Shown: positions 14,477 through 48,881 of the stretch, one piece after another | Layout of the letters: every line of letters begins with the position of its first letter | Numbering within the stretch: the stretch's first letter is position 1 | Assembly: GCA_037305845.1 (NCBI GenBank) | Contig: CP147778.1 | Location: 3,488,001 to 3,552,000 of the forward strand | Reading direction: 5' to 3' | Source: Candidatus Freyarchaeum deiterrae | GTDB lineage: Archaea; Asgardarchaeota; Jordiarchaeia; Jordiarchaeales; Jordiarchaeaceae | DNA: 64,000 nucleotides | The notes under the pieces: generated by a model | Told to the model about the DNA's origin: nothing | Databases searched by the model: none | The model's input: the letters and a program-made list of their open reading frames with translations, nothing else | Made by a program: the position numbers and the translations under genes

Positions 14477-14820
14477 AACACCAGCAATCCTCCTCCAACA
14501 CAAAATTTATTAGAACAGTAGAAAATATAATGAAAATATAACACTATTGTATATTTATCTCTTAAAAAGGTCGTTGAACGACAAACAACCGTTACCGAAA
14601 CCAATGGAACGGAACGAACGAGGAGAGAGAGGAGGAATAAAAACTGAAACAGACACTCCCACTCTTTCTCAGGTTCACAGACGATAAGCAGAAAAAGGGA
14701 AGAGGGAAACGAGGACTCCAAAACATACTAACTAACTAATAGTATTAGTATTGGAGCCTTGCCCTACACAGAAACTTAATTGTTTCTCCTATTAAAAAAA
14801 ACTAATCAAATGAAAATTGA
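14477..14820 (+). repeat. Conserved upstream element, copy 1 (promoter region plus structured leader)
   Basis: Aligns by eye with 17536-17897, 21990-22329 and 46400-46769. Confidence 0.9.
14568..14820 (+). ncRNA. Candidate structured 5' leader RNA, copy 1
   Basis: Stems CCGTT/AACGG, GAGAGAGAG/CTCTTTCTC, GAGGaCTCCA/TGGAGCCTT and AGAAAC/GTTTCT, retained in the other copies. Confidence 0.6.
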
Positions 14821-17427
14821 GTGAAAACTATGAAAAGCATCAGGCGAAATAAGAAAGCACTAAAGATAACAGCAGTCTTAGCAGCAGTTCTACTCACGGC
14901 AACAATCGTCACAGCGGTTACAGCAATCCAGAACCGGAACACTGTCCCGCTCATCAACTTATACCTGCAGGGCGTCTCGCCAAGTCCTAGCAACGCCATA
15001 ATTCAACCAAAGACTATTCCCATGAGTGGTTACAACATATTGAACGGAAGCGTCTACTATGATAGTATAACTGTGACTGCGAACAACACAGTGATAGACG
15101 GAAACGGATCCACCGTGCAGGGCTCCGGAACTGGGTACGGCTTCTACTTAAATGGAGTAAGCAACGTAACCATCTATAACGTCGCAGTTACAGGGTGGGA
15201 CTACGGCTTCTACCTATCCTCCAGCTCAAACAACAATCTTTCTGGTAACACCGCAAACAACAACGCCAACTACTACGGCTTCTACCTGTACAGTAGCTCG
15301 AACAACAATACTCTCTCGAGTAACACAGCAAACAGCAACTGGGTCGGCTTCGTCCTAGACTCCAGCTCCAACAATACTCTCTTGGGTAACACAGCACACT
15401 TCAATACTGCGGCCGGCTTCGCCCTAGGCCCCAGCTCGAACAACAATACTCTCTCGGGTAACACAGCCACAGATAGCTTAGACGTATATAGCGAAGGCTT
15501 CGGCCTAGGTTCCAGCTCGTACAATAATCTTTCGGGTAATACAGCAGAACACAACACGCGCGGCTTCTACCTGTACGGCGGCTCAAACAACAATCTTTCG
15601 GGTAACACGGCAAACGAGAACATTGGCTACCGTGATGACAGCGGCCATAATACGCCCGGCGTCGGCTTCTTTCTAACTAGTACCTTGAGCAATATTCTTT
15701 CAGGTAACACCGCTTACGACAGCCAATGGGCCGGCTTCTGGCTAACCTCTGGCTCGAACTACAATAATCTTTCGGGTAACAACGCAAATAACTGGCCCTT
15801 TACCCCCGCCGTCTACGGTTTCGAGGTAACCTCCGGCGAAACCTACCTAGTGCCCAGCTCTTACAATACTCTTTCGGGTAACACCGCAAACAACAACCAA
15901 ATGGGCTTCTACCTATACGACGGCTCGGGCAACAATAATCCGGGCAATAATCTTTCGGGTAACAACGCCACAAACAACAACAACAATGGCTTCCTCCTAG
16001 AAGGCAGCTCGAATAATAATCTTACAAATAACACCGCAAACAACAACGGCGGTAACGGCTTCGTGCTATACTCCACCGTTGACCCGGCTCACCATTGGTG
16101 GCTCAGATCCAACAACAATATTCTTTCGGGCAACACCGCAAACAACAACAACGAAGGCTTCTACGTGTACCAAAGCTTGAACAACACTCTTTTGGGTAAC
16201 AAGGCAAACAACAACAGGCATACAGGCTTCCACCTGTACGGCGGCTCAAACAACAACAATCTTTCGGGTAACAACGCTACGAACAACAACAATTACGGCT
16301 TCTATTTGGAAACTAATTCGTTTGGTAACAACCTTCCGGGTAACATCGCTTTAAACTGTACGACTGGAGGATACAACTGGAGTGGTGACTGTATCAATAA
16401 TAATTTTACGGGTAGCGTGGAGGCGTACTATCTGCGTGTGAACGTCACCGATGTTCTGGGCTCTCCTATTTCCGGCGTGGACGTTAACGTGGTGACCGAT
16501 GGAACAAGTGTGTATCGCTCGTCACACTTTGGTGGTACTGACCCCCCAACCGGCTCTAATGGTGTCACCTCCTGGATCGCGGTCGCCTACAGGACATTCA
16601 TAACAAGCGATACCATGACTGAGAACACCACCAATGCTACCGTGTACTATCAGGGTCGTCCCATCTCAGGAAGCAACCCTAGGACAGTCAACATGTCCAC
16701 ATCACAAGTGGAAACCTTCATCGTGGACACCACCCCACTCACAGTGAACATCACCTCACCCACCAATGGTACGCTGTTTAACACCGGCAGTGTTACAGCC
16801 ACTTGGACTGTTAGCGTCCCCTCGATAGTAGATCACTACGAGGTCAGAATTGAAGGAGGCAACTGGAACAACATGGGAACTAGCACCAGCAACACTTTCA
16901 GCGGTTTGTTCGACGGTTCTCACACGGTTGATGTTATGGTCTTCGACCTTGCGGGTAACAACGCTAACGCCTCAGTGTTCTTCACCGTGGACACCACCCC
17001 ACCTACGGTGAGCATTACCTCGCCCACCAATGATACGCTGTTTAACACTAGCGGTGTTACGGTCACTTGGACTGGTAGCGACGCCCTCTCGGGCATAGCT
17101 TATTTTGAGGTTAGTACTGATGGGGTTAACTGGAGCAATGTAACTACGAGTTTCAGCTATAATTTCACCGGTCTCTCAGACGGCTCTCACACCGTTGATG
17201 TTAGGGCTTGGGACCTTGCGGGTAACAACGCTAACGCTTCTGTATCCTTCACCGTGGCTTCCGTGCAACCAGGACAATCTCAGGCTATGCTTCTGGCTCT
17301 CTTGTCGTTGGCTGGAACGCTGGGAGGAGGCACCAGTCCTCTGGTTTACGCTGCCATCATTGGTGTCGTGGGCGTGGGTGTAGTGGCTGCTGGTTTGATC
17401 TACTACTTCCGAAAAGTGAACGCTTAA
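14821..17427 (+). CDS. Cell-surface parallel beta-helix (NosD/CASH-like) protein with 2 Ig-like repeats and a C-terminal TM anchor
   Basis: Signal peptide; GFYLxxSSNNxLSGNTAxxN coils; DTTP..ITSP Ig-like units; TM helix plus basic tail. Confidence 0.92.
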   Translation: MKTMKSIRRNKKALKITAVLAAVLLTATIVTAVTAIQNRNTVPLINLYLQGVSPSPSNAIIQPKTIPMSGYNILNGSVYYDSITVTANNTVIDGNGSTVQGSGTGYGFYLNGVSNVTIYNVAVTGWDYGFYLSSSSNNNLSGNTANNNANYYGFYLYSSSNNNTLSSNTANSNWVGFVLDSSSNNTLLGNTAHFNTAAGFALGPSSNNNTLSGNTATDSLDVYSEGFGLGSSSYNNLSGNTAEHNTRGFYLYGGSNNNLSGNTANENIGYRDDSGHNTPGVGFFLTSTLSNILSGNTAYDSQWAGFWLTSGSNYNNLSGNNANNWPFTPAVYGFEVTSGETYLVPSSYNTLSGNTANNNQMGFYLYDGSGNNNPGNNLSGNNATNNNNNGFLLEGSSNNNLTNNTANNNGGNGFVLYSTVDPAHHWWLRSNNNILSGNTANNNNEGFYVYQSLNNTLLGNKANNNRHTGFHLYGGSNNNNLSGNNATNNNNYGFYLETNSFGNNLPGNIALNCTTGGYNWSGDCINNNFTGSVEAYYLRVNVTDVLGSPISGVDVNVVTDGTSVYRSSHFGGTDPPTGSNGVTSWIAVAYRTFITSDTMTENTTNATVYYQGRPISGSNPRTVNMSTSQVETFIVDTTPLTVNITSPTNGTLFNTGSVTATWTVSVPSIVDHYEVRIEGGNWNNMGTSTSNTFSGLFDGSHTVDVMVFDLAGNNANASVFFTVDTTPPTVSITSPTNDTLFNTSGVTVTWTGSDALSGIAYFEVSTDGVNWSNVTTSFSYNFTGLSDGSHTVDVRAWDLAGNNANASVSFTVASVQPGQSQAMLLALLSLAGTLGGGTSPLVYAAIIGVVGVGVVAAGLIYYFRKVNA

Positions 17428-17535: not shown

Positions 17536-17897
17536 AAAACACCGGCAATCCTCCTCAAACACAAATTTTATTAGAACAGTCAAAAATATATAAAAAACAT
17601 AATAAAAATATAACACAATTTTATATTTATATCTTAAAAAGGGTCGTTGAACGACAAACAACCGTTGTTGAAACCAACGGAACGGACGAGGAGAGAGAGA
17701 GAGCAGGAATAAAAAACCGAAACAGACACTCCCCACTCTTTCTCAGGTTCACAGACGAGAAGCAGAAGAAAAAGGGAAGAGGGAAACAAGGTCTCCAAAA
17801 CATACTAACTAACTAACTAATAGTAGTAGTAGTGGAGCCTTGCCCTACGTAGAAACTTAACTGTTTCTACATAAAAAACTAATCAAATGAAAATTGA
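17536..17897 (+). repeat. Conserved upstream element, copy 2
   Basis: Same blocks as copy 1 in the same order; leader portion about 17640-17897. Confidence 0.9.
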
Positions 17898-20800
17898 GTG
17901 AAAACTATGAAAAGCATCAGGGAAAATAAGAAAGCACTAAAGATAGCAGCAGTTCTAGCAGCAATTCTCCTAACAGCAACAATCATCACAGCGGTTACAG
18001 CAGTCCAGAACCAGAACCGGAACACTATCCCGCTCATCAACGCGTACCTGATGGGCTTCTCCCCAAGCCCTAACAACGCCATCATTCTACCAAAGATGGA
18101 CGTAAATAGTAGCATCACGTTAAGCGGAGGCGTCTACACCGAACAGATAAATGTGGTAGCGAGCAACATAGTGATAGACGGAAACGGATCCACCGTGCAG
18201 GGCTTCCAACACGATTCTGGCATCATCCTAAATGGCGTAAACCACGTAACCATCTATAATGTCGAAGTCACAGGGTGGTACAGAGGCTTCGAACTAGAGT
18301 CCAGCTCTTACATTACTCTTTCGGATAACACCGCAACCGACAACTACTTTGGCTTCTACCTAGGCTCCAGCTCAAACAATACTCTTTCGGATAACACCGC
18401 ATACAATAACAACAACATAATCGGCTTCTACCTAGACTCCAGCTCGAACAATATCCTTTCGGGTAACACTGCAAACAACAATCAATTTCACGGCTTCGTC
18501 CTGTGGAATAGCCCGTACAATACTCTTTCTAGTAACACGGCAACCAACTGCGGCGCGAGCGGCTTTGTCTTGACCGGAAGCTCTTACAATATTCTTTCGG
18601 GTAACACCGCAACAAACAATCAATTTGACGGCTTCTGCCTATCCTCCAGCTCGAACAATAATACTCTTTCGGGTAACACAGCAAACAACAACGACTGGGG
18701 AGCCAGCTACAACTCCGCTGGCTTCTTACTATCCTCCAGCTCGAACAATAATACTCTTTCGGGTAACATCGCATACAATAACTGCTACTACAGCTTCTGG
18801 CTATCCTCTAGCTCTTACAATACTCTTTCAGGTAACACCGCAAACAACAACACCAACGGCGAAGGCTTCTACCTAGGCTCCAGCTCTTACAATAATCTTA
18901 CGGGTAACAATGCAAACAACAACCTCAACGGCGGCTTCATCCTAGACAGCAGCTCGTCGTACAATAATCTTTCGGGTAACATGGCAAACAACAACTACTA
19001 CGGCTTCCAACTAGGCTCCAGCTCAAACTATATTATTTCTGGCAACACCGCAAACAACAACAACATAGGCTTCTACCTGTATAATAGCGCAAACAACAAT
19101 AATCTTACGGGTAACAACGCAACCAGCAACACACAATACGGCTTCTACCTAGACACCAGCTCTAACAATACTCTTTCAGGTAACACTGCAAACAACAACG
19201 GCCACTGCGGCTTCTTCCTATCCTCCGGCTCGACCAATACTCTTTCTGATAACACAGCAAACAACAACAGCTACTACGGCTTCTGGCTAGCCTCTAGCTC
19301 GACCAATACTCTTTCTGATAACACAGCAAACAACAACAGCTACTACGGTTTTTCCCTAGATTTCAGCTCGACCAATACTCTTTCTGATAACACAGCAAAC
19401 AACAACGGCTACGACGGCTTCTTCCTATCCTCCGGCTCGACCAATATTCTTTCTGATAACACAGCAAACAACAACAGCCACTACGGCTTCTACCTAGACT
19501 CCAGCTCAGACAATAATCTTTTGGGTAATAGCGCAAACAACAACGGCTACGACGGCTTCTTCCTAACTTCCAGCTCGGGCAGCAACACTCTTTTTAATAA
19601 CACAGCAAACAGCAACAACGATGGGTTCTACATATATTCCGGCTCCAATAATATTACAAATAACACCGCAAACAACAACTACTGGGACGGCTTCCTCCTA
19701 GCCCAAGGCTCGTATAGTAATCTTTCTGATAACACTGCAAGCAACAACGGCATCGCAGGCTTCTGCCTAGCCTCCAGCTCGAACAATATTACAAATAACA
19801 CCGCAAACAACAACCACTACGGCTTCGATCTAGCCAGCAGTTCAACCTACAATACTCTTTCTGGTAACACGGCAAACAACAACACCGACTCCGGTTTCTA
19901 CATAACCGACAGTTCAACCTACAATACTCTTTCTGGTAACACGGCAAACAACAACACCGACTCCGGTTTCTACCTATCCACGAACAACAATAATCTTTCG
20001 GGCAATAATAATGCAACCAACAACAACTACGGGTTCAACTTAAAGTCCAGCTGGTACAATATTCTTTCTGGCAACACCGCAAACAACAACGCTGAGCACG
20101 GTTTCGGCTTATCCAACAGCTCTTACAATAATCTTTCCGGCAACACAGCAAACAACAACCTTCTGGGCTTCTACCTACACTACAGCTCTTACAATAATCT
20201 TTCCGGCAACACAGCAAACAACAACAGCATAAGCTTCTACTTAGACTCCAACTCCAATAATAATACTCTTTCTGGTAACACGGCAAGCAACAACACCGAC
20301 TCCGGTTTCTACATAGATCCTTCGTATAACAATGTTCTTTCGGGTAACACTATAGTGGGGTGTGGATTATTTGTGTCCGGTTCTCTTTCATCCTTAGAGT
20401 CGAATACTATTGATCAGAGTAACACTGTGAATGGAGAGACCCTCTACTACTACGTGGATGAGAGTGGTCTTTCTCCGGCAGATTTCGTAAACGCTGGTCA
20501 GGTGATACTGGTCAATTGCGCCAATTCATGGATTTCCGGACTAAACATTTCTAACACCAACGCAGGAATCCAGTTATACTACTCCAGCAACATTACAATA
20601 TCGGAGAATAACATCTCCTTTAACCAGTATGGCATTTACCTGAGTAATTCGAACAACAACATAATTTCAAACAACACAGTAACAAATAGCACCAATTATG
20701 GCTTCTGGCTCGTTTCTTCGAGCTATAATACTCTTACAAGCAACACCGCAAACAACAACAACTATGACAGCTTTAGCTTCTTCCTAAACTCCAGCTCGAA

Positions 20801-21989: not shown

Positions 21990-22329
21990 GAAAACACCAG
22001 AAATCCTCCTCCAACACAAAATTTATTAGAACAGCAGAAAATATATGAAAAATATACTAAAAATATAACACTATTGTATATTTATATCTTAAAAAGGGCG
22101 TTGAACGACAAACAACCGTTACCGAAACCAACGGAACGGAACGAAGGAGAGGTAGGAGGAATAAAAACTGAAACAGACACTCCCTCCTTCTCAAATTCAC
22201 AGACTAGAAGCAGAAAAAAAGGGAAGAGGGAAACAAGGACTCCAAAACATACTAAAATAAAATTGGAGCCTTGCCCTACGCAGAAACTTAACTGTTTCTA
22301 CATAAAAAAATAATCAAATGAAAATATGA
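21990..22329 (+). repeat. Conserved upstream element, copy 3
   Basis: Same blocks as copies 1 and 2; leader portion about 22095-22329. Confidence 0.9.
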
Positions 22330-25300
22330 GTGAAAACTATGAAAATCATAAGAGGAAACAAGAAAGTATTAAAGATAGCAGCAGTCCTAGCAGCAGTCCT
22401 CCTCACAGCAACAATCATCACAGCGGCTACAGCAATCCAAAACCAGAACCAAAACACTATCCCGCTCATCAACGCGTACCTGATGGGCTTCTCCCCAAGC
22501 CCTAACAACGCCATCATTCTACCAAAGATGGACGTAAATAGTAACATCACGTTAAACGGGGGCGTCTACACCGAAACGATAAATGTTCTGGCGAGCAACA
22601 TAGTGATAGACGGAAACGGGTCCACAGTGCAGGGCTTTTACCCATTTGGATTTGGCTTCAACTTAAACGGCAGAAGCTACGTAACCATTTATAACGTCAC
22701 GGTCACAGGGTGGGACTGCGGCTTCTACCTATACAACAGCTTTAATAACAATCTCACAAATAACAACGCGAACAGCACCAGTACCGGCTTCTACCTGCAA
22801 AGCAGCTCAAACAATATTCTTTCTGGTAACACGGCAAACAACAACGGATACGGCTTCTACCTAGACTCCAGCTCTTACAACAATCTCACAAATAACACCG
22901 CAAACAACAACACCTACGATGGCTTCTACCTAGGGGGCAGCTCGAACAACAATATTCTTTCGGGTAACAACGCAAACAACAACAACTACTACGGCTTCTA
23001 CCTGGGTGGTTCCAATAACAACTTTATTTACCAGAACGATTTTGAAAATAACACTTATAATGCGGTTTCTGATAGCTCAACCAATTTCTGGAACTCCCCA
23101 AGTGAAATTACCTACGTCTACAACGACAAAATTTGCACAAGCTACCTCGGCAACTACTGGAGTGACTACACGGGAAGCGACACCAACGGGGATGATATCG
23201 GAGACACACCCTACATCATCACGGGTGGAGCTCAGGACAATTATCCGCTGATGCAACCCTTTCAGAATTACCTCATTCCCATCTACGTGTGGAATGACTA
23301 CACCTTCACAGGAGACCTCGTCAATCAACCAGTAATTGTGAATGGGTCAAACATAGTGATAAACGGAAACGGCTACACCATACAAGGACCCGGAGTTGGA
23401 GTCGGTTGCGGCTTCAACTTAAATGGCGTGACCAACGTAACCATAGAAAACATCACAGTCACAGGGTGGCAATACGGCTTCTACCTAGACTCCAGCTCGA
23501 ATAATACTCTTACGGGTAACACCGCAAACAACAACACCAACACCGGCTTCTACCTGTCCTACAGCTCGTACAACAATCTCTCGAGTAACACCGCGAACAA
23601 CAACTACTACTACGGCTTCTACCTGGACCATAGCTCGTACAATACTCTCTCGGGTAACACCGCGAACAACGTCACCCTATACGTCGGCTTCTTCCTGTAC
23701 TATAGCTCGTACAATACTCTTTCGGGTAACACCGCAGACAGCAACACCTACTACGGCTTCTACCTATACGGTAGCTCTTACAATACTCTTTCGGGTAACA
23801 CCGCAAACTACAACTACTACGGATTCTACCTAGACGGTATCTCGAACAACAATACTCTTTCGGGTAACATCGCGAACAGCAACAACTACCGCGGCTTCTA
23901 CCTATGGTGGAGCTCGTATAATACTCTTTCGGGTAACACCGCAGACAGCAACACCTACTATGGCTTTGACTTATACATCAGCTCGAACAACGATCTCTCG
24001 GGTAACACCGCAAACTACAATTACTACGGCTTCCGCCTAGACTCCATCTCGGACAATAATAATCTTTCTAATAACACTGCGGACAACAACCCCGGCGTCG
24101 GTTTCTACCTGTATTCTTCGAACTATAATAACCTCTCAGGCAACACCGCGTACGGCAACGGCGACGGCTTCTACCTAGACCGCGGCTCGAGCAGCAACAA
24201 TCTTTCTAATAACACTGCAACTAACAATAATTACGGTTTCGCACTATGCGATAGCTCAAACAATAATAATCTTTCGGGTAACACGGCAGACAGCAACACT
24301 TATGAGAACGGCATCTACGGCGACGGCTTCTGCCTGAACTCTAGCTCGTATAATATTCTTTCTGATAACACCGCAAACAAAAACGGCTTTGGCTTCCACC
24401 TAAACCCCGGCTCTAACTACAATACTCTTTCGGATAACAACGCAACCAACAACTGGCAAGCTGGCTTCTGGCTATACTCCAGCTCAAACAACAATCTTTC
24501 GGGAAACATAGCCACAAACAACCACCAAGGCTTCACCCTAGCAGATAGCTCGAACAACATTCTCTTGGGCAACACCGCGAACAAAAACAGTATAGGCTTC
24601 TATCTGGCCAGCTCTTACAATACTCTTTCGGGTAACACCGCAAACAACAACGACCAAGGCTTCTATATAATCTACGGCTCTTACAATACTCTTTCGGGTA
24701 ACACCGCAAACAACAACGATGTCGCCGGGTACTACCCATGGTCCAGCGACGGTTTCTTCCTATGGTACAGCCCGTACAACAATCTTTCGAACAACACTGC
24801 AAACTACAACAAATGCGGCTTCTACCTAGCCTACAGCTCTTACAACACTCTTTCGGGAAACACTGCAACCAACAACACTTACCACGGCTTCTACCTAGAC
24901 TACAGCTCGGACAACAATATTCTTTCTGGCAACACTGCTCTAAACTGTAATACGGGATACTATTGGTCTTCCGACAGTAGTAATAATGATTTTACGGGCA
25001 GTGTTTGGGCCAACTACCTGTGTGTGAACATCACAGACCCTCTGGGGCTTCCTATTCCTGGCGCAGAGATTAACGTTGAAACCGACGGAACACCGGTATA
25101 CGCTACACCCCATTTTGGAGGTTTAAACGATACAACCGATTCGAATGGTTTAACCCCATGGATCATTGTCACCTACGAGACTGGTACAGGAATAGACCAG
25201 ATGACTTTGAACACCACCAACGTCACCGTGTACTACGCACAGTTGCCCTTCTCAAACAATTCAAGAACGGTTAGCATGTCTGCGTCACATGTAGAAACAT

Positions 25301-46399: not shown

Positions 46400-46769
46400 C
46401 CCCTCCCCCGACAATAACAAAATTTATTAGAAGGTTCAAAGGTACATATAAAAAAATAATTAAAATGTATAAAAATATAATAGTGTTGTATAAATAAAAT
46501 TTGTATGTAAACTATTTAAAGGAAAAGCCATTCCAAAAAAAGGGCGTTGAATAGCTAACTAAAAACCGTTAACGATACGGGTAATACGGGAGAAGAGAAG
46601 AGAGGAGGAATAAACTGAAACAGACAATTCGCCTTTTCTGCAGTTCCAGACTAGAAGTAAAAGAGAGGGAAACAAGGACTCCAAAACATACTAACTAAAA
46701 TTGGAGCCTTGCCCTACGTAGAAACTTTACTGTTTCTACAACCTAAAAAAAACTAACCATAAAAACTGA
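46400..46769 (+). repeat. Conserved upstream element, copy 4 (most diverged)
   Basis: Retains ACAAAATTTATTAGAA, GGGCGTTGAA, CTGAAACAGAC, GGGAAACAAGGACTCC..GGAGCCTTGCCC and GTAGAAAC..GTTTCTAC; leader portion about 46541-46769. Confidence 0.85.
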
Positions 46770-48881
46770 GTGAAAAACATGAGAAACATCAGAGCAAATA
46801 AAAAGGCACTAAAGATAGCAGCAGTTCTACTCACGGCAGCAACAATCCTCACAGCGGTTGCCAATACCCAAAGCCAGAGCCAAAGCCAAAACGTGTATCC
46901 GTTCATCAGCTTATACCTGCAGGGCGTCAACCCGCCAAGTCCCAACAACGCCATCGTTCTACCAAAGGCTGACATAGGTACTAGCGTCACATTTGACCAC
47001 GATTACACTGAAACGATAAATGTGACCGCGGACAACATAGTGATAGACGGAGCCGGACACTCTGTAACAGGCCCCGGATCATCCGGGATCGGCTTCAACT
47101 TGACCGGCAGAAATAACGTGACCATAAAGAACGTCAATGTCAATGGGTGGCAGTACGGCTTCTACCTGTACCAAAGCTCGAACAACAACATCATAAATAA
47201 CACAGCAAACAACAACACAAACAGCTACGGCTTCGCCCTACTCTCCGGTTCGAACAACACTCTTACAAATAACACCGCCACAAACAACACCTACGGCTTC
47301 GAAATATCCTCCGGCTCTAACAACAACAATCTTACAAATAACACCGCCACAAACAACAACTTCGGCTTCCACCTATACTTCAGCTCTAACAACAATAATC
47401 TTACGGGTAACACCGCAAACAACAACTCTCAATTCGGCTTCTTCCTAGACACCAGCCCCACCAACAATAATCTTATAAATAACACAGCAAAAAACAACGG
47501 TGCTGGCTTCGGCCTATCCTCCGGCTCTAACAACAATAATCTTACGGGTAACACCGTAAACAACAACTACTACGGCTTCTACCTATACTCCAGCTCTAAC
47601 AACAACATCATAAATAACACAGCAAACAACAACACAAACGGCTACGGCTTCTACATACGCTACAACTCGAACAACAACACTCTTACGGGTAACACCGCAA
47701 ACAACAACACAAACGGCTTCTACCTAAACTCCAGCTCCAACTACAACAATATCATAAATAACACCGCAACATACAACACCAACAACGGCTTCTACCTAAA
47801 CTCCAGCTCGAACAACAATAATCTTACTGGTAACATTGCAAACAGCAACACCAACGACGCCGGCTTCTACCTATTCTCCAGCTCAAACAATACTCTTTCT
47901 GGTAACAACGCAACCAGCAACACCATCTACGGCTTCTACCTAGACTCCAGCTCCAACAACAACATTCTTACAAATAACAACGCAAACAACAACGCCCACT
48001 TCGGCTTCATCCTAGACTCCAGCCCCACCAACAATACTCTTACGGGTAACACCGCAACCAACAACTCAAACGGCGGATTCTACCTACACTACAGCTCGAA
48101 CAACACTCTTACAAATAACAACGCAACCAACAACGGCTACGGCTTCTTTCTACAATACATCTCAAACAACAATACTCTTTTGGGTAACACCGCAAACAAC
48201 AACACAAACGGCTTCTACCTATGGTTCAGCTCGGACAACAACACTCTTACGGGTAACACCGCAACCAACAACTACTATGGCTTTTATTTGAGGGATGCGT
48301 CTACGGGTAATAACCTCCTAGGTAATACTGCTTTAAACTGTACTGCTACAGGGTATAACTGGACTGCTGACTGTATCAATAATAATTTTACGGGTAGCGT
48401 GGAGAAGTACTATTTGCGTATAAGCGTCGTCGATCTTCTGGGCTCTCCTATTCCGGGTGCAGATGTTTTGGTTGTGACCGATGGAAGAATTGTGTATTGG
48501 ACCTCACACTTTATTGTTACACTCCCCATAAGCCCCCCAACCGACTCTAATGGTGTCACCCCCTGGATTGCGGTCCTCTACCGAACGTTCACAACAAACC
48601 AGTCCATGACTATGAACACCACCAATGTTACCGTGTACTATCAGGGAATCTCCGTCTCGGGAAGCAACCCTAGGACGGCTAACATGTCCACATCACACGT
48701 GGAAACGTTCCAGGTGGCGACGATGACTGCAACGTCTCTAGCGTTTTCCTCATTGATGCTGTCTAATTTGCAGGGAGGAGGAGGCACCAGTCCGCTGGTT
48801 TACGCTGCTATCATAGGTGTCTTGGGCGTGGTTGTAGTAGCAGGTGGTTTGATCTACTACTTCCGCAGAGTGAAAACTTGA
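46770..48881 (+). CDS. Cell-surface parallel beta-helix (NosD/CASH-like) protein, short form
   Basis: Same signal peptide, coils and GGGTSPLVYAAIIG anchor as the 14.8-26.5 kb paralogues. Confidence 0.92.
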   Translation: MKNMRNIRANKKALKIAAVLLTAATILTAVANTQSQSQSQNVYPFISLYLQGVNPPSPNNAIVLPKADIGTSVTFDHDYTETINVTADNIVIDGAGHSVTGPGSSGIGFNLTGRNNVTIKNVNVNGWQYGFYLYQSSNNNIINNTANNNTNSYGFALLSGSNNTLTNNTATNNTYGFEISSGSNNNNLTNNTATNNNFGFHLYFSSNNNNLTGNTANNNSQFGFFLDTSPTNNNLINNTAKNNGAGFGLSSGSNNNNLTGNTVNNNYYGFYLYSSSNNNIINNTANNNTNGYGFYIRYNSNNNTLTGNTANNNTNGFYLNSSSNYNNIINNTATYNTNNGFYLNSSSNNNNLTGNIANSNTNDAGFYLFSSSNNTLSGNNATSNTIYGFYLDSSSNNNILTNNNANNNAHFGFILDSSPTNNTLTGNTATNNSNGGFYLHYSSNNTLTNNNATNNGYGFFLQYISNNNTLLGNTANNNTNGFYLWFSSDNNTLTGNTATNNYYGFYLRDASTGNNLLGNTALNCTATGYNWTADCINNNFTGSVEKYYLRISVVDLLGSPIPGADVLVVTDGRIVYWTSHFIVTLPISPPTDSNGVTPWIAVLYRTFTTNQSMTMNTTNVTVYYQGISVSGSNPRTANMSTSHVETFQVATMTATSLAFSSLMLSNLQGGGGTSPLVYAAIIGVLGVVVVAGGLIYYFRRVKT

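Follow-up and report, generated by a model that had tools for sequence, protein, structure and literature searches.

A conserved two-hairpin module in a probable mRNA leader precedes surface and secreted protein genes in one lineage of Asgard archaea

The window considered here, a stretch of 64,000 nucleotides, is part of the genome of Candidatus Freyarchaeum deiterrae (G000 below), which is a single contig of 3,576,204 bp; a complete 'Freyarchaeia' genome of 3.58 Mbp has been described from California wetland soil (PMC11291895). Four genes in the window encode large NosD/right-handed beta-helix proteins, some with Ig-like domains, and each gene is preceded by a copy of a common leader. The initial annotation had reported these four copies, and their places were confirmed: they can be aligned over the whole length with a mean column identity of 82%, far above chance, and the ordered blocks listed for them were all found in the four copies. 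A TATA-like block lies upstream of each leader, and the 3' part of the leader carries two hairpins, H1 and H2. The features are listed below, with the coordinates of the window and the strand in brackets.

14498..14516 (+): BRE/TATA-like block of copy 1, candidate distal promoter, about 332 nt 5' of the ATG, kept in 7 of 7 G000 copies
14566..14829 (+): leader of copy 1, 264 nt, A 42%, T 19%, fold z-score -5.7 on the + strand
14704..14764 (+): H1 of copy 1, with an outer GGG/CCC, an AAA bulge, 5 bp, one bulged base and 5 bp
14721-14751: loop of H1 of copy 1, 31 nt, of CTAA/TAG-type simple repeats
14770..14787 (+): H2 of copy 1, AGAAAC/GTTTCT with a 6-nt loop
14818..14824 (+): Shine-Dalgarno-like TGAGTGA of copy 1, which includes the GTG of the initial annotation
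14830..17427 (+): gene of copy 1, NosD/beta-helix and Big_7 surface protein, from the ATG
17557..17577 (+): TATA-like block of copy 2
17638..17906 (+): leader of copy 2, 269 nt
17781..17845 (+): H1 of copy 2, with a 35-nt loop (17798-17832)
17849..17870 (+): H2 of copy 2, 8 bp
22014..22032 (+): TATA-like block of copy 3
22093..22338 (+): leader of copy 3, 246 nt
22228..22276 (+): H1 of copy 3
22280..22301 (+): H2 of copy 3
46414..46432 (+): TATA-like block of copy 4
46539..46778 (+): leader of copy 4, 240 nt, a more divergent subtype, nearest to the copies of other species
46667..46714 (+): H1 of copy 4, the best match to the covariance models R1 and R2 described below
46718..46739 (+): H2 of copy 4, 8 bp

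BLAST of copy 1 against its own genome brought the near-full leader copies in G000 to seven, the three outside the window each lying 5' of a long ORF with the same N-terminus, and the core H1 was found before four more G000 genes besides these seven. The copy 5' of the gene at G000:480042 was left out of the counts because its H1-like pairing is ambiguous, and a genome scan for GGGAAAC followed by a hairpin was set aside as too permissive. The homology unit exceeds the borders that had been drawn for the leader, as it reaches from about -350, where the conserved TATA-like block lies, to about +800 in the coding sequence. A further conserved block is present upstream of the TATA-like block, at the start of the leader homology unit.

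According to a signal-peptide HMM, about 18 genes in G000 carry one common signal peptide, and H1 precedes 11 of these. Among the 11 are the gene of a secreted glucose/sorbosone dehydrogenase (GSDH), whose orthologue in the related genome G002 has H1 as well, and the gene of an Ig-rich surface protein (both found with model R2), which suggests that the element follows the signal-peptide class and not the beta-helix as such. Thus, the tie to beta-helix surface genes proposed in the initial annotation holds for all four copies in the window, but it is loosened by the GSDH and Ig-rich genes that have H1 and by several family members that are without it. The two GSDH sites (G000:C1:884791-884831 and G002:C413:16681-16720; loci L341 and L363) keep the upper stem of H1 by U-G and U-A pairs.

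The upstream regions of the signal-peptide family fall into three types. Type A, with seven genes, is the form that had been described from the window. Type B, with two genes, has a 5' half wholly unlike that of type A but the same 3' module, and type C, which is without the H1/H2 module, has a TATA block of the same kind at about -160. A type B gene (about 947 aa), the fifth gene of the family, begins 339 nt past the end of the window; its leader at G000:C1:3552229-3552338 (L313:530-639) combines the different 5' half with the same H1/H2, and the pairing of H1 is kept there via a shifted bulge. Members of type C were seen at L338:430-700 and as G000 genes at 3415961(-), 3436797(+) and 867460(+). 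L338, contig C80 of G002 and, in part, the gene at 3415961 share a separate hairpin, GCACTC/GAGTGC, before which stands the word GTTGAA that also opens the type A leader.

The leaders had been taken to end at a GTG start codon. This GTG sits inside the Shine-Dalgarno (SD)-like TGAGTGA and is not kept in relatives, being absent from the copies of other species, whereas an ATG (or TTG/GTG) 9 nt downstream of it is kept in all relatives. Together these observations point to the ATGs at 14830, 17907, 22339 and 46779 as the most likely gene starts, and the start codons of the family should be moved accordingly, to 9 nt beyond the GTG. The SD-like site is conserved 5-6 nt 5' of the ATG, TGAGTGA can pair with the 16S 3' end of the genome, GGATCACCTCCT, and SD motifs are strongly enriched at -15..-6 genome-wide. 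Two 16S 3' ends are present in G000, at about 1,806,504 and 1,836,142. The initial annotation was right in finding no conserved ORF in the leader, since the open frames differ among the copies on both strands, and control by a leader peptide or uORF was rejected because the frames differ between copies and the indels are not multiples of three. A mini-ORF of four codons overlaps the SD-like site at 14810-14824 and 17887-17901, with three codons in copy 3 (22318-22333); it is also seen in the L002 copy and is missing from the remaining copies.

The description of the leader as conserved and structured applies to its 3' module, whereas half of the stems proposed for it failed and the covariation is modest. 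The module consists of H1 (outer GGG/CCC, AAA bulge, 5-bp stem, one bulged base, 5-bp stem) and H2 (6-8 bp), which were the last two of the proposed stems and hold also in the wider set of sequences. The loop varies from 5 to 36 nt in H1 and from 4 to 8 nt in H2, with the stems intact throughout. Short simple repeats (CTAA-type, TAG/AGT-type) make up part of the H1 loops, the number of repeats differs among paralogues, and such repeats were seen also in L006 and L002. Of the other stems, CCGTT/AACGG is missing in copy c6 and in the loci L331 and L337, and the purine/pyrimidine stem, which lies in low-complexity sequence, is formed by all type A copies but with a register that shifts between them. 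The palindrome GTCGTT/AACGAC was rejected as a conserved feature, as it is confined to the copies c1-c3, at the 5' end. With nine copies, RNAalifold gave a near-zero covariation term.

Across the alignments of the module, 92-94% of the paired cells can pair. In a plain MAFFT alignment 93.7% of the cells pair and three pairs (five cells) are changed on both sides, a cell count that was reached by 5 of 500 shuffles. A 19-sequence alignment that was fitted to the model, and is thereby biased towards structure, has 92.8% pairing and both-sided changes in six pairs (eight cells), which none of 500 shuffles reached, and pairing in it falls to 35-55% when the partner columns are slid. For H1 alone in 23 sequences, three pairs and five cells are changed, the cell count being reached by 10 of 500 shuffles. 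One of the changes is from A-U to G-C in H2 of one G002 lineage (three G002 copies), with a G-U intermediate in copy c7; two pairs are changed in the copy of G005, and L137, a metagenome contig, has a change in the uppermost pair of H1. The shifted bulge of the type B copy beyond the window and the changes in the GSDH and Ig-rich copies look compensatory as well, partly as judged by eye. Independent compensatory events are nevertheless few, roughly five, and the stem sequence is conserved beyond what pairing alone needs. Compared with dinucleotide shuffles, whole leaders have z-scores from -1.5 to -5.7 on the + strand, those of the reverse strand being slightly weaker. G-U and A-C departures from pairing are of similar frequency in the first set (6 and 8) and number about 12 and 6 by a hand tally with the later copies; these counts do not settle the strand or whether the element acts as RNA or DNA.

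The clearest mark of selection is the difference between stems and their surroundings. In the 16-sequence alignment of the module, stem columns are 89% identical, compared with 43-58% for loops, linker and flanks (49% elsewhere overall). As a neutral yardstick we used the four-fold sites of the PEP carboxylase orthologue, which are 57% identical between G000 and G002, 56% between G000 and G005 and 44% between G002 and G005. The sequence upstream of the GSDH orthologue pair has diverged, and only islands of it are kept; H1, at about -95, is one of them, and the others are a TATA-like block at about -255, some short blocks and the SD region. Since the stems lie above synonymous identity and H1 persists as an island in the GSDH pair, the comparison shows that the H1/H2 stems are under purifying selection, with far weaker constraint on the remainder of the leader. 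Divergence equal to that of synonymous sites, which the initial annotation had named as an argument against the element, is thus not what the stems display, whereas between subgroups the leader as a whole does match the four-fold sites (68-76% and 62-79% identity, respectively).

That match is one of the reasons to consider that the likeness of the copies could come from recent duplication and gene conversion of mosaic surface-gene 5' ends, with the leader itself functionless. The homology unit, in which promoter and leader are joined by some 800 nt from the beginning of the coding sequence, is in line with such a history, as is the loss or decay of the hairpins in some copies. Over the first 270 or so codons (14830-15640, 17907-, 22339- and 46779-), the three codon positions are conserved to about the same degree (about 0.7-0.8 each), as expected under recombination and diversifying change; the N-termini thus evolve under little amino-acid purifying selection or by mosaic recombination. 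In the four closest paralogous copies, leader identity (89-93%) exceeds that at the four-fold sites of the coding sequence next to it (59-76%), and gene conversion may add to the likeness of these copies. However, we consider a functionless leader quite improbable, because conservation is patchy in the way that selection predicts, with the stems so far above the loops, because the conservation of the stems spans species with about 57% synonymous-site identity, and because the single-copy GSDH orthologue pair keeps H1 despite its diverged flanks. The alignments lead us to regard the element as a real, selected and lineage-specific control element.

The module does not accompany every member of the family. 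H1/H2 are missing or decayed in p599k, in the G004 copy and in L336 and L337, which suggests that the element is dispensable for some genes. Before the family member at G000:C1:599650-599915 (L349; about 1289 aa), the 3' arm of H2 alone is left, right after a TATA-like word; by comparison with the other copies this leader has been truncated, and the hairpins would be dispensable for this gene if it is expressed. When 11 genomes of the order were searched with two covariance models, R1 for H1 and H2 together and R2 for H1 alone, matches came from G000, G002 and G005 only. A GC-rich structured region about 15.7 kb before the window was hit by neither model and was judged to be unrelated. Among 400 genomes of the phylum that were scanned for a pattern, only G000 and G002 had real matches, the other 398 being at background. 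Retrieval guided by the proteins brought in further copies, from three assemblies or metagenomes that are Jordarchaeaceae-like (L331, L334, L337), together with one strongly decayed relative (L336). Exact-pattern scans of metagenome and genome collections returned mostly chance matches in gut bacteria, and only L137 and Ca. Jordarchaeum contigs were real after a filter for the partner arm. Within the searched set the element was found only in one genus-level lineage, which is Jordarchaeum-like, and it appears to be confined to it.

Whether H1 and H2 act in an mRNA depends on where transcription starts. The BRE/TATA-like block is conserved in all seven G000 copies (7/7) and between the GSDH orthologues. 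The homologous block of the hairpin-less relative L338 reads as canonical TTTATATA, and the second subtype, type B, has canonical BRE/TATA motifs about 260 nt upstream. The distal TATA motifs are the best of all, and their conservation spans subtypes and species. Between the promoter block and the ATG, A is exceptionally frequent and T exceptionally scarce on the sense strand, with an AT skew of +0.3 to +0.6 compared with about +0.06 upstream of genes genome-wide, and no T run of five or more is present in the four leaders of the window. The excess of A over T together with the lack of such runs would suit a region that is transcribed and kept free of archaeal termination signals, and the conserved SD implies that the mRNA has at least some leader. 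Judged from these sequence features, the element is probably an mRNA leader.

Read the other way, control could lie in the DNA, with transcription-factor sites and promoter architecture accounting for the conservation and transcription starting between H2 and the SD, so that H1 and H2 would never be in the mRNA. The stems are conserved as sequence (89%), and the G-U and A-C departures do not favour RNA. A-rich, TATA-like stretches are found also between H2 and the SD, 25-45 nt before the latter, and in this genome TATA-like words 5' of genes have a weak and broad rise only at about -30 to -60, by which most leaders seem short. Conserved blocks and palindromes lie also upstream of the distal TATA block, which makes control by transcription factors likely whichever reading holds. 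Against a purely DNA-level element, the arms of H1 stand 5 to 36 nt apart, which can be tolerated by a hairpin but not by a dimeric DNA-binding protein, the both-sided changes preserve pairing, and the strong A-over-T skew of the sense strand extends across the entire region. In addition, the best TATA motifs are distal and conserved as described above, and the A-rich spacer before the SD varies by about 30 nt in length and is nearly free of T in some copies. We therefore find it unlikely that the hairpins act only as DNA, although we rate this reading above the other alternatives. Conserved palindromic words, GGAATTCC-like and TAATTGAATTA-like, lie 5' of the TATA box of type B and are candidate transcription-factor sites; they are located at L013:1290-1400 and in G000 at about 3552030-3552080 and 621900-621960. 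With ARAGORN, nine tRNA genes were found in G000, which is too few for a promoter consensus and fits the heavily intron-split tRNAs reported for the lineage.

In the Logan contigs of an ONT cDNA run of a metatranscriptome, with a depth of about 2, parts of the coding regions of genes 1 and 2 are covered; at this depth the contigs do not reach the leader and give no evidence either way. One contig has a 23-nt loose end that has no match to the window and is joined at 14837, 7 nt inside the ORF. We take this loose end to be the ONT strand-switch primer, so that the contig derives from a truncated or cleaved molecule and 14837 is unusable as a transcription start. The RNA 5' end at this position could be a cleavage product, a result of decay or an artefact.

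The element belongs to no known class, as had been suspected: the whole window gave no match to Rfam 15 at gathering thresholds, and a permissive Rfam search around copy 1 returned chance matches only (11-19 bits compared with thresholds of 39-75, E at least 0.24). The initial annotation had proposed a riboswitch, an attenuator or a protein-binding RNA. The first of these does not fit what was found, since the core is two independent simple hairpins, with a variable H1 loop and no junction, in front of surface genes in one lineage, and the NosD/beta-helix, GSDH and Ig-rich genes have in common a signal peptide and not a metabolite. The element is very probably not a riboswitch, and a new riboswitch class is unlikely. 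More broadly, the leader could switch between exclusive pairings that hide or free the ribosome-binding site. RNAalifold offered an alternative pairing of a 5' AGGGC with the GCCCT that otherwise closes H1, and in about 11 of 17 copies no other segment of the leader pairs better with the SD region than its single pyrimidine tract. However, such a tract is a natural partner of any purine-rich SD. Sequestration of the SD by the tract was rejected, as cognate duplexes were no better than non-cognate ones in a swap test and the duplexes in G000 are weak (-5 to -8 kcal/mol); the test revealed no matching of the tracts to their own SD, and for G000 copies the pairing with a foreign SD was the stronger one. 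With no Rfam family, no conserved multi-helix junction and a freely variable H1 loop, with a 5' half that is wholly different between the two subtypes, with downstream genes that share a cellular destination rather than a metabolite, and with an occurrence in one genus-level lineage only, a switch of either kind, riboswitch or exclusive pairings, is hardly credible. A kink-turn that would bind L7Ae was also considered and rejected, because the AAA bulge in H1 is followed by C-G and A-U pairs and not by tandem sheared G-A.

A leader could also be terminated prematurely or processed. Each leader is poor in T apart from one T3-T5 tract; transcription could end at this T-containing pyrimidine tract, or the RNA could be cut near the start codon, with H1 and H2 guiding a nuclease or a pause. 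Leader T tracts, however, are shorter than efficient archaeal terminators, and H2 is followed by an A run and not by a U run. The proposal of an attenuator or intrinsic terminator was not borne out for the same reason, the leaders in the window being without T runs of five or more. As to cleavage, a cut at 20-30 nt 5' of the start codon is common in long archaeal 5' UTRs, and the mRNA is stabilised and activated by it (PMC5499594). Taken together, a leader that serves processing or attenuation seems doubtful to us.

The reading that we prefer is a shared structured 5' UTR cassette in which H1 and H2 serve as a post-transcriptional handle, by protein binding or message protection, and we give it about an even chance of being correct. 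In this model, a cassette of promoter, leader and signal peptide would head the genes of secreted and surface proteins in Freyarchaeia (Jordarchaeum-like Asgard archaea). Transcription would most likely start at the conserved TATA-like promoter 230-330 nt 5' of the start codon and would yield a long, A-rich and U-poor 5' UTR, with H1 and H2 lying 35-130 nt before the ATG. After H2 an unstructured A-rich spacer would follow, and then an exposed SD site. The hairpins would form a common handle on the mRNA that is bound by a protein or protects the message, and in this way many costly envelope genes could be handled jointly. A bolder proposal is that H1 is an RNA address that couples the mRNAs of exported proteins to the membrane or secretion machinery, or sets their joint translation, via a dedicated factor. 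H1 could bind such a factor, as it travels with one signal peptide across unrelated beta-helix, GSDH and Ig-rich proteins, but this proposal is a long shot.

Constant 5' ends in a family of variable surface proteins are known from the vlp/vsp genes of Mycoplasma, in which the promoter, the 5' UTR and part of the signal peptide are near constant, in contrast to a mosaic and rapidly evolving mature protein. The present family resembles them as a multigene surface family with constant 5' ends. In Mycoplasma these ends serve phase or antigenic variation by promoter repeats or recombination; here, in contrast, there is a hairpin pair with compensatory changes, and no switching mechanism was seen. 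Structured 5' UTRs of S-layer genes, such as slpA of Lactobacillaceae, have been credited with mRNA stability and high expression (review PMC10221546). Those bacterial leaders have in common with ours a long leader with stable stem-loops, an envelope protein and an exposed ribosome-binding site, the hairpins and the free A-rich SD being predictions in our case. Unlike them, the element is archaeal, has no homology to them in sequence or structure and is common to many paralogous and non-paralogous genes instead of one. In the methanogens Methanolobus psychrophilus and Methanosarcina mazei, structured leaders of 100-200 nt act after transcription, and long archaeal leaders are not rare, so that the premise of the initial annotation that archaeal 5' UTRs are usually short fails for several methanogens (PMC5499594). 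The methanogen leaders are gene-specific and have mapped transcription starts and cleavage sites, whereas here one motif, defined from sequence, stands before many genes. The cis-regulatory families of Rfam, archaeal riboswitches included, are alike in their position 5' of the coding sequence and in having a predicted structure, but none scored above threshold. By these comparisons the element appears to be homologous to none of the S-layer, methanogen or variable-surface systems, and the S-layer and methanogen leaders would be its nearest counterparts in function.

Most Asgard archaea cannot be grown, and to our knowledge, from a literature search that was not aimed at this question, no cis-acting RNA elements have been described in them. 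The motif, two hairpins of about 80 nt in all, is short, defined, testable and under selection. It marks genes for envelope and secreted proteins and thus offers a handle on the co-ordination of the cell surface, a marker for annotation and a bait for the factor that reads the motif. Even if it were plain promoter DNA, it would be a clear regulon signature, and if the RNA address proposed for H1 is true, it would be a signal for sorting, or for a regulon, that acts at the level of the mRNA in an archaeon closely related to eukaryotes.
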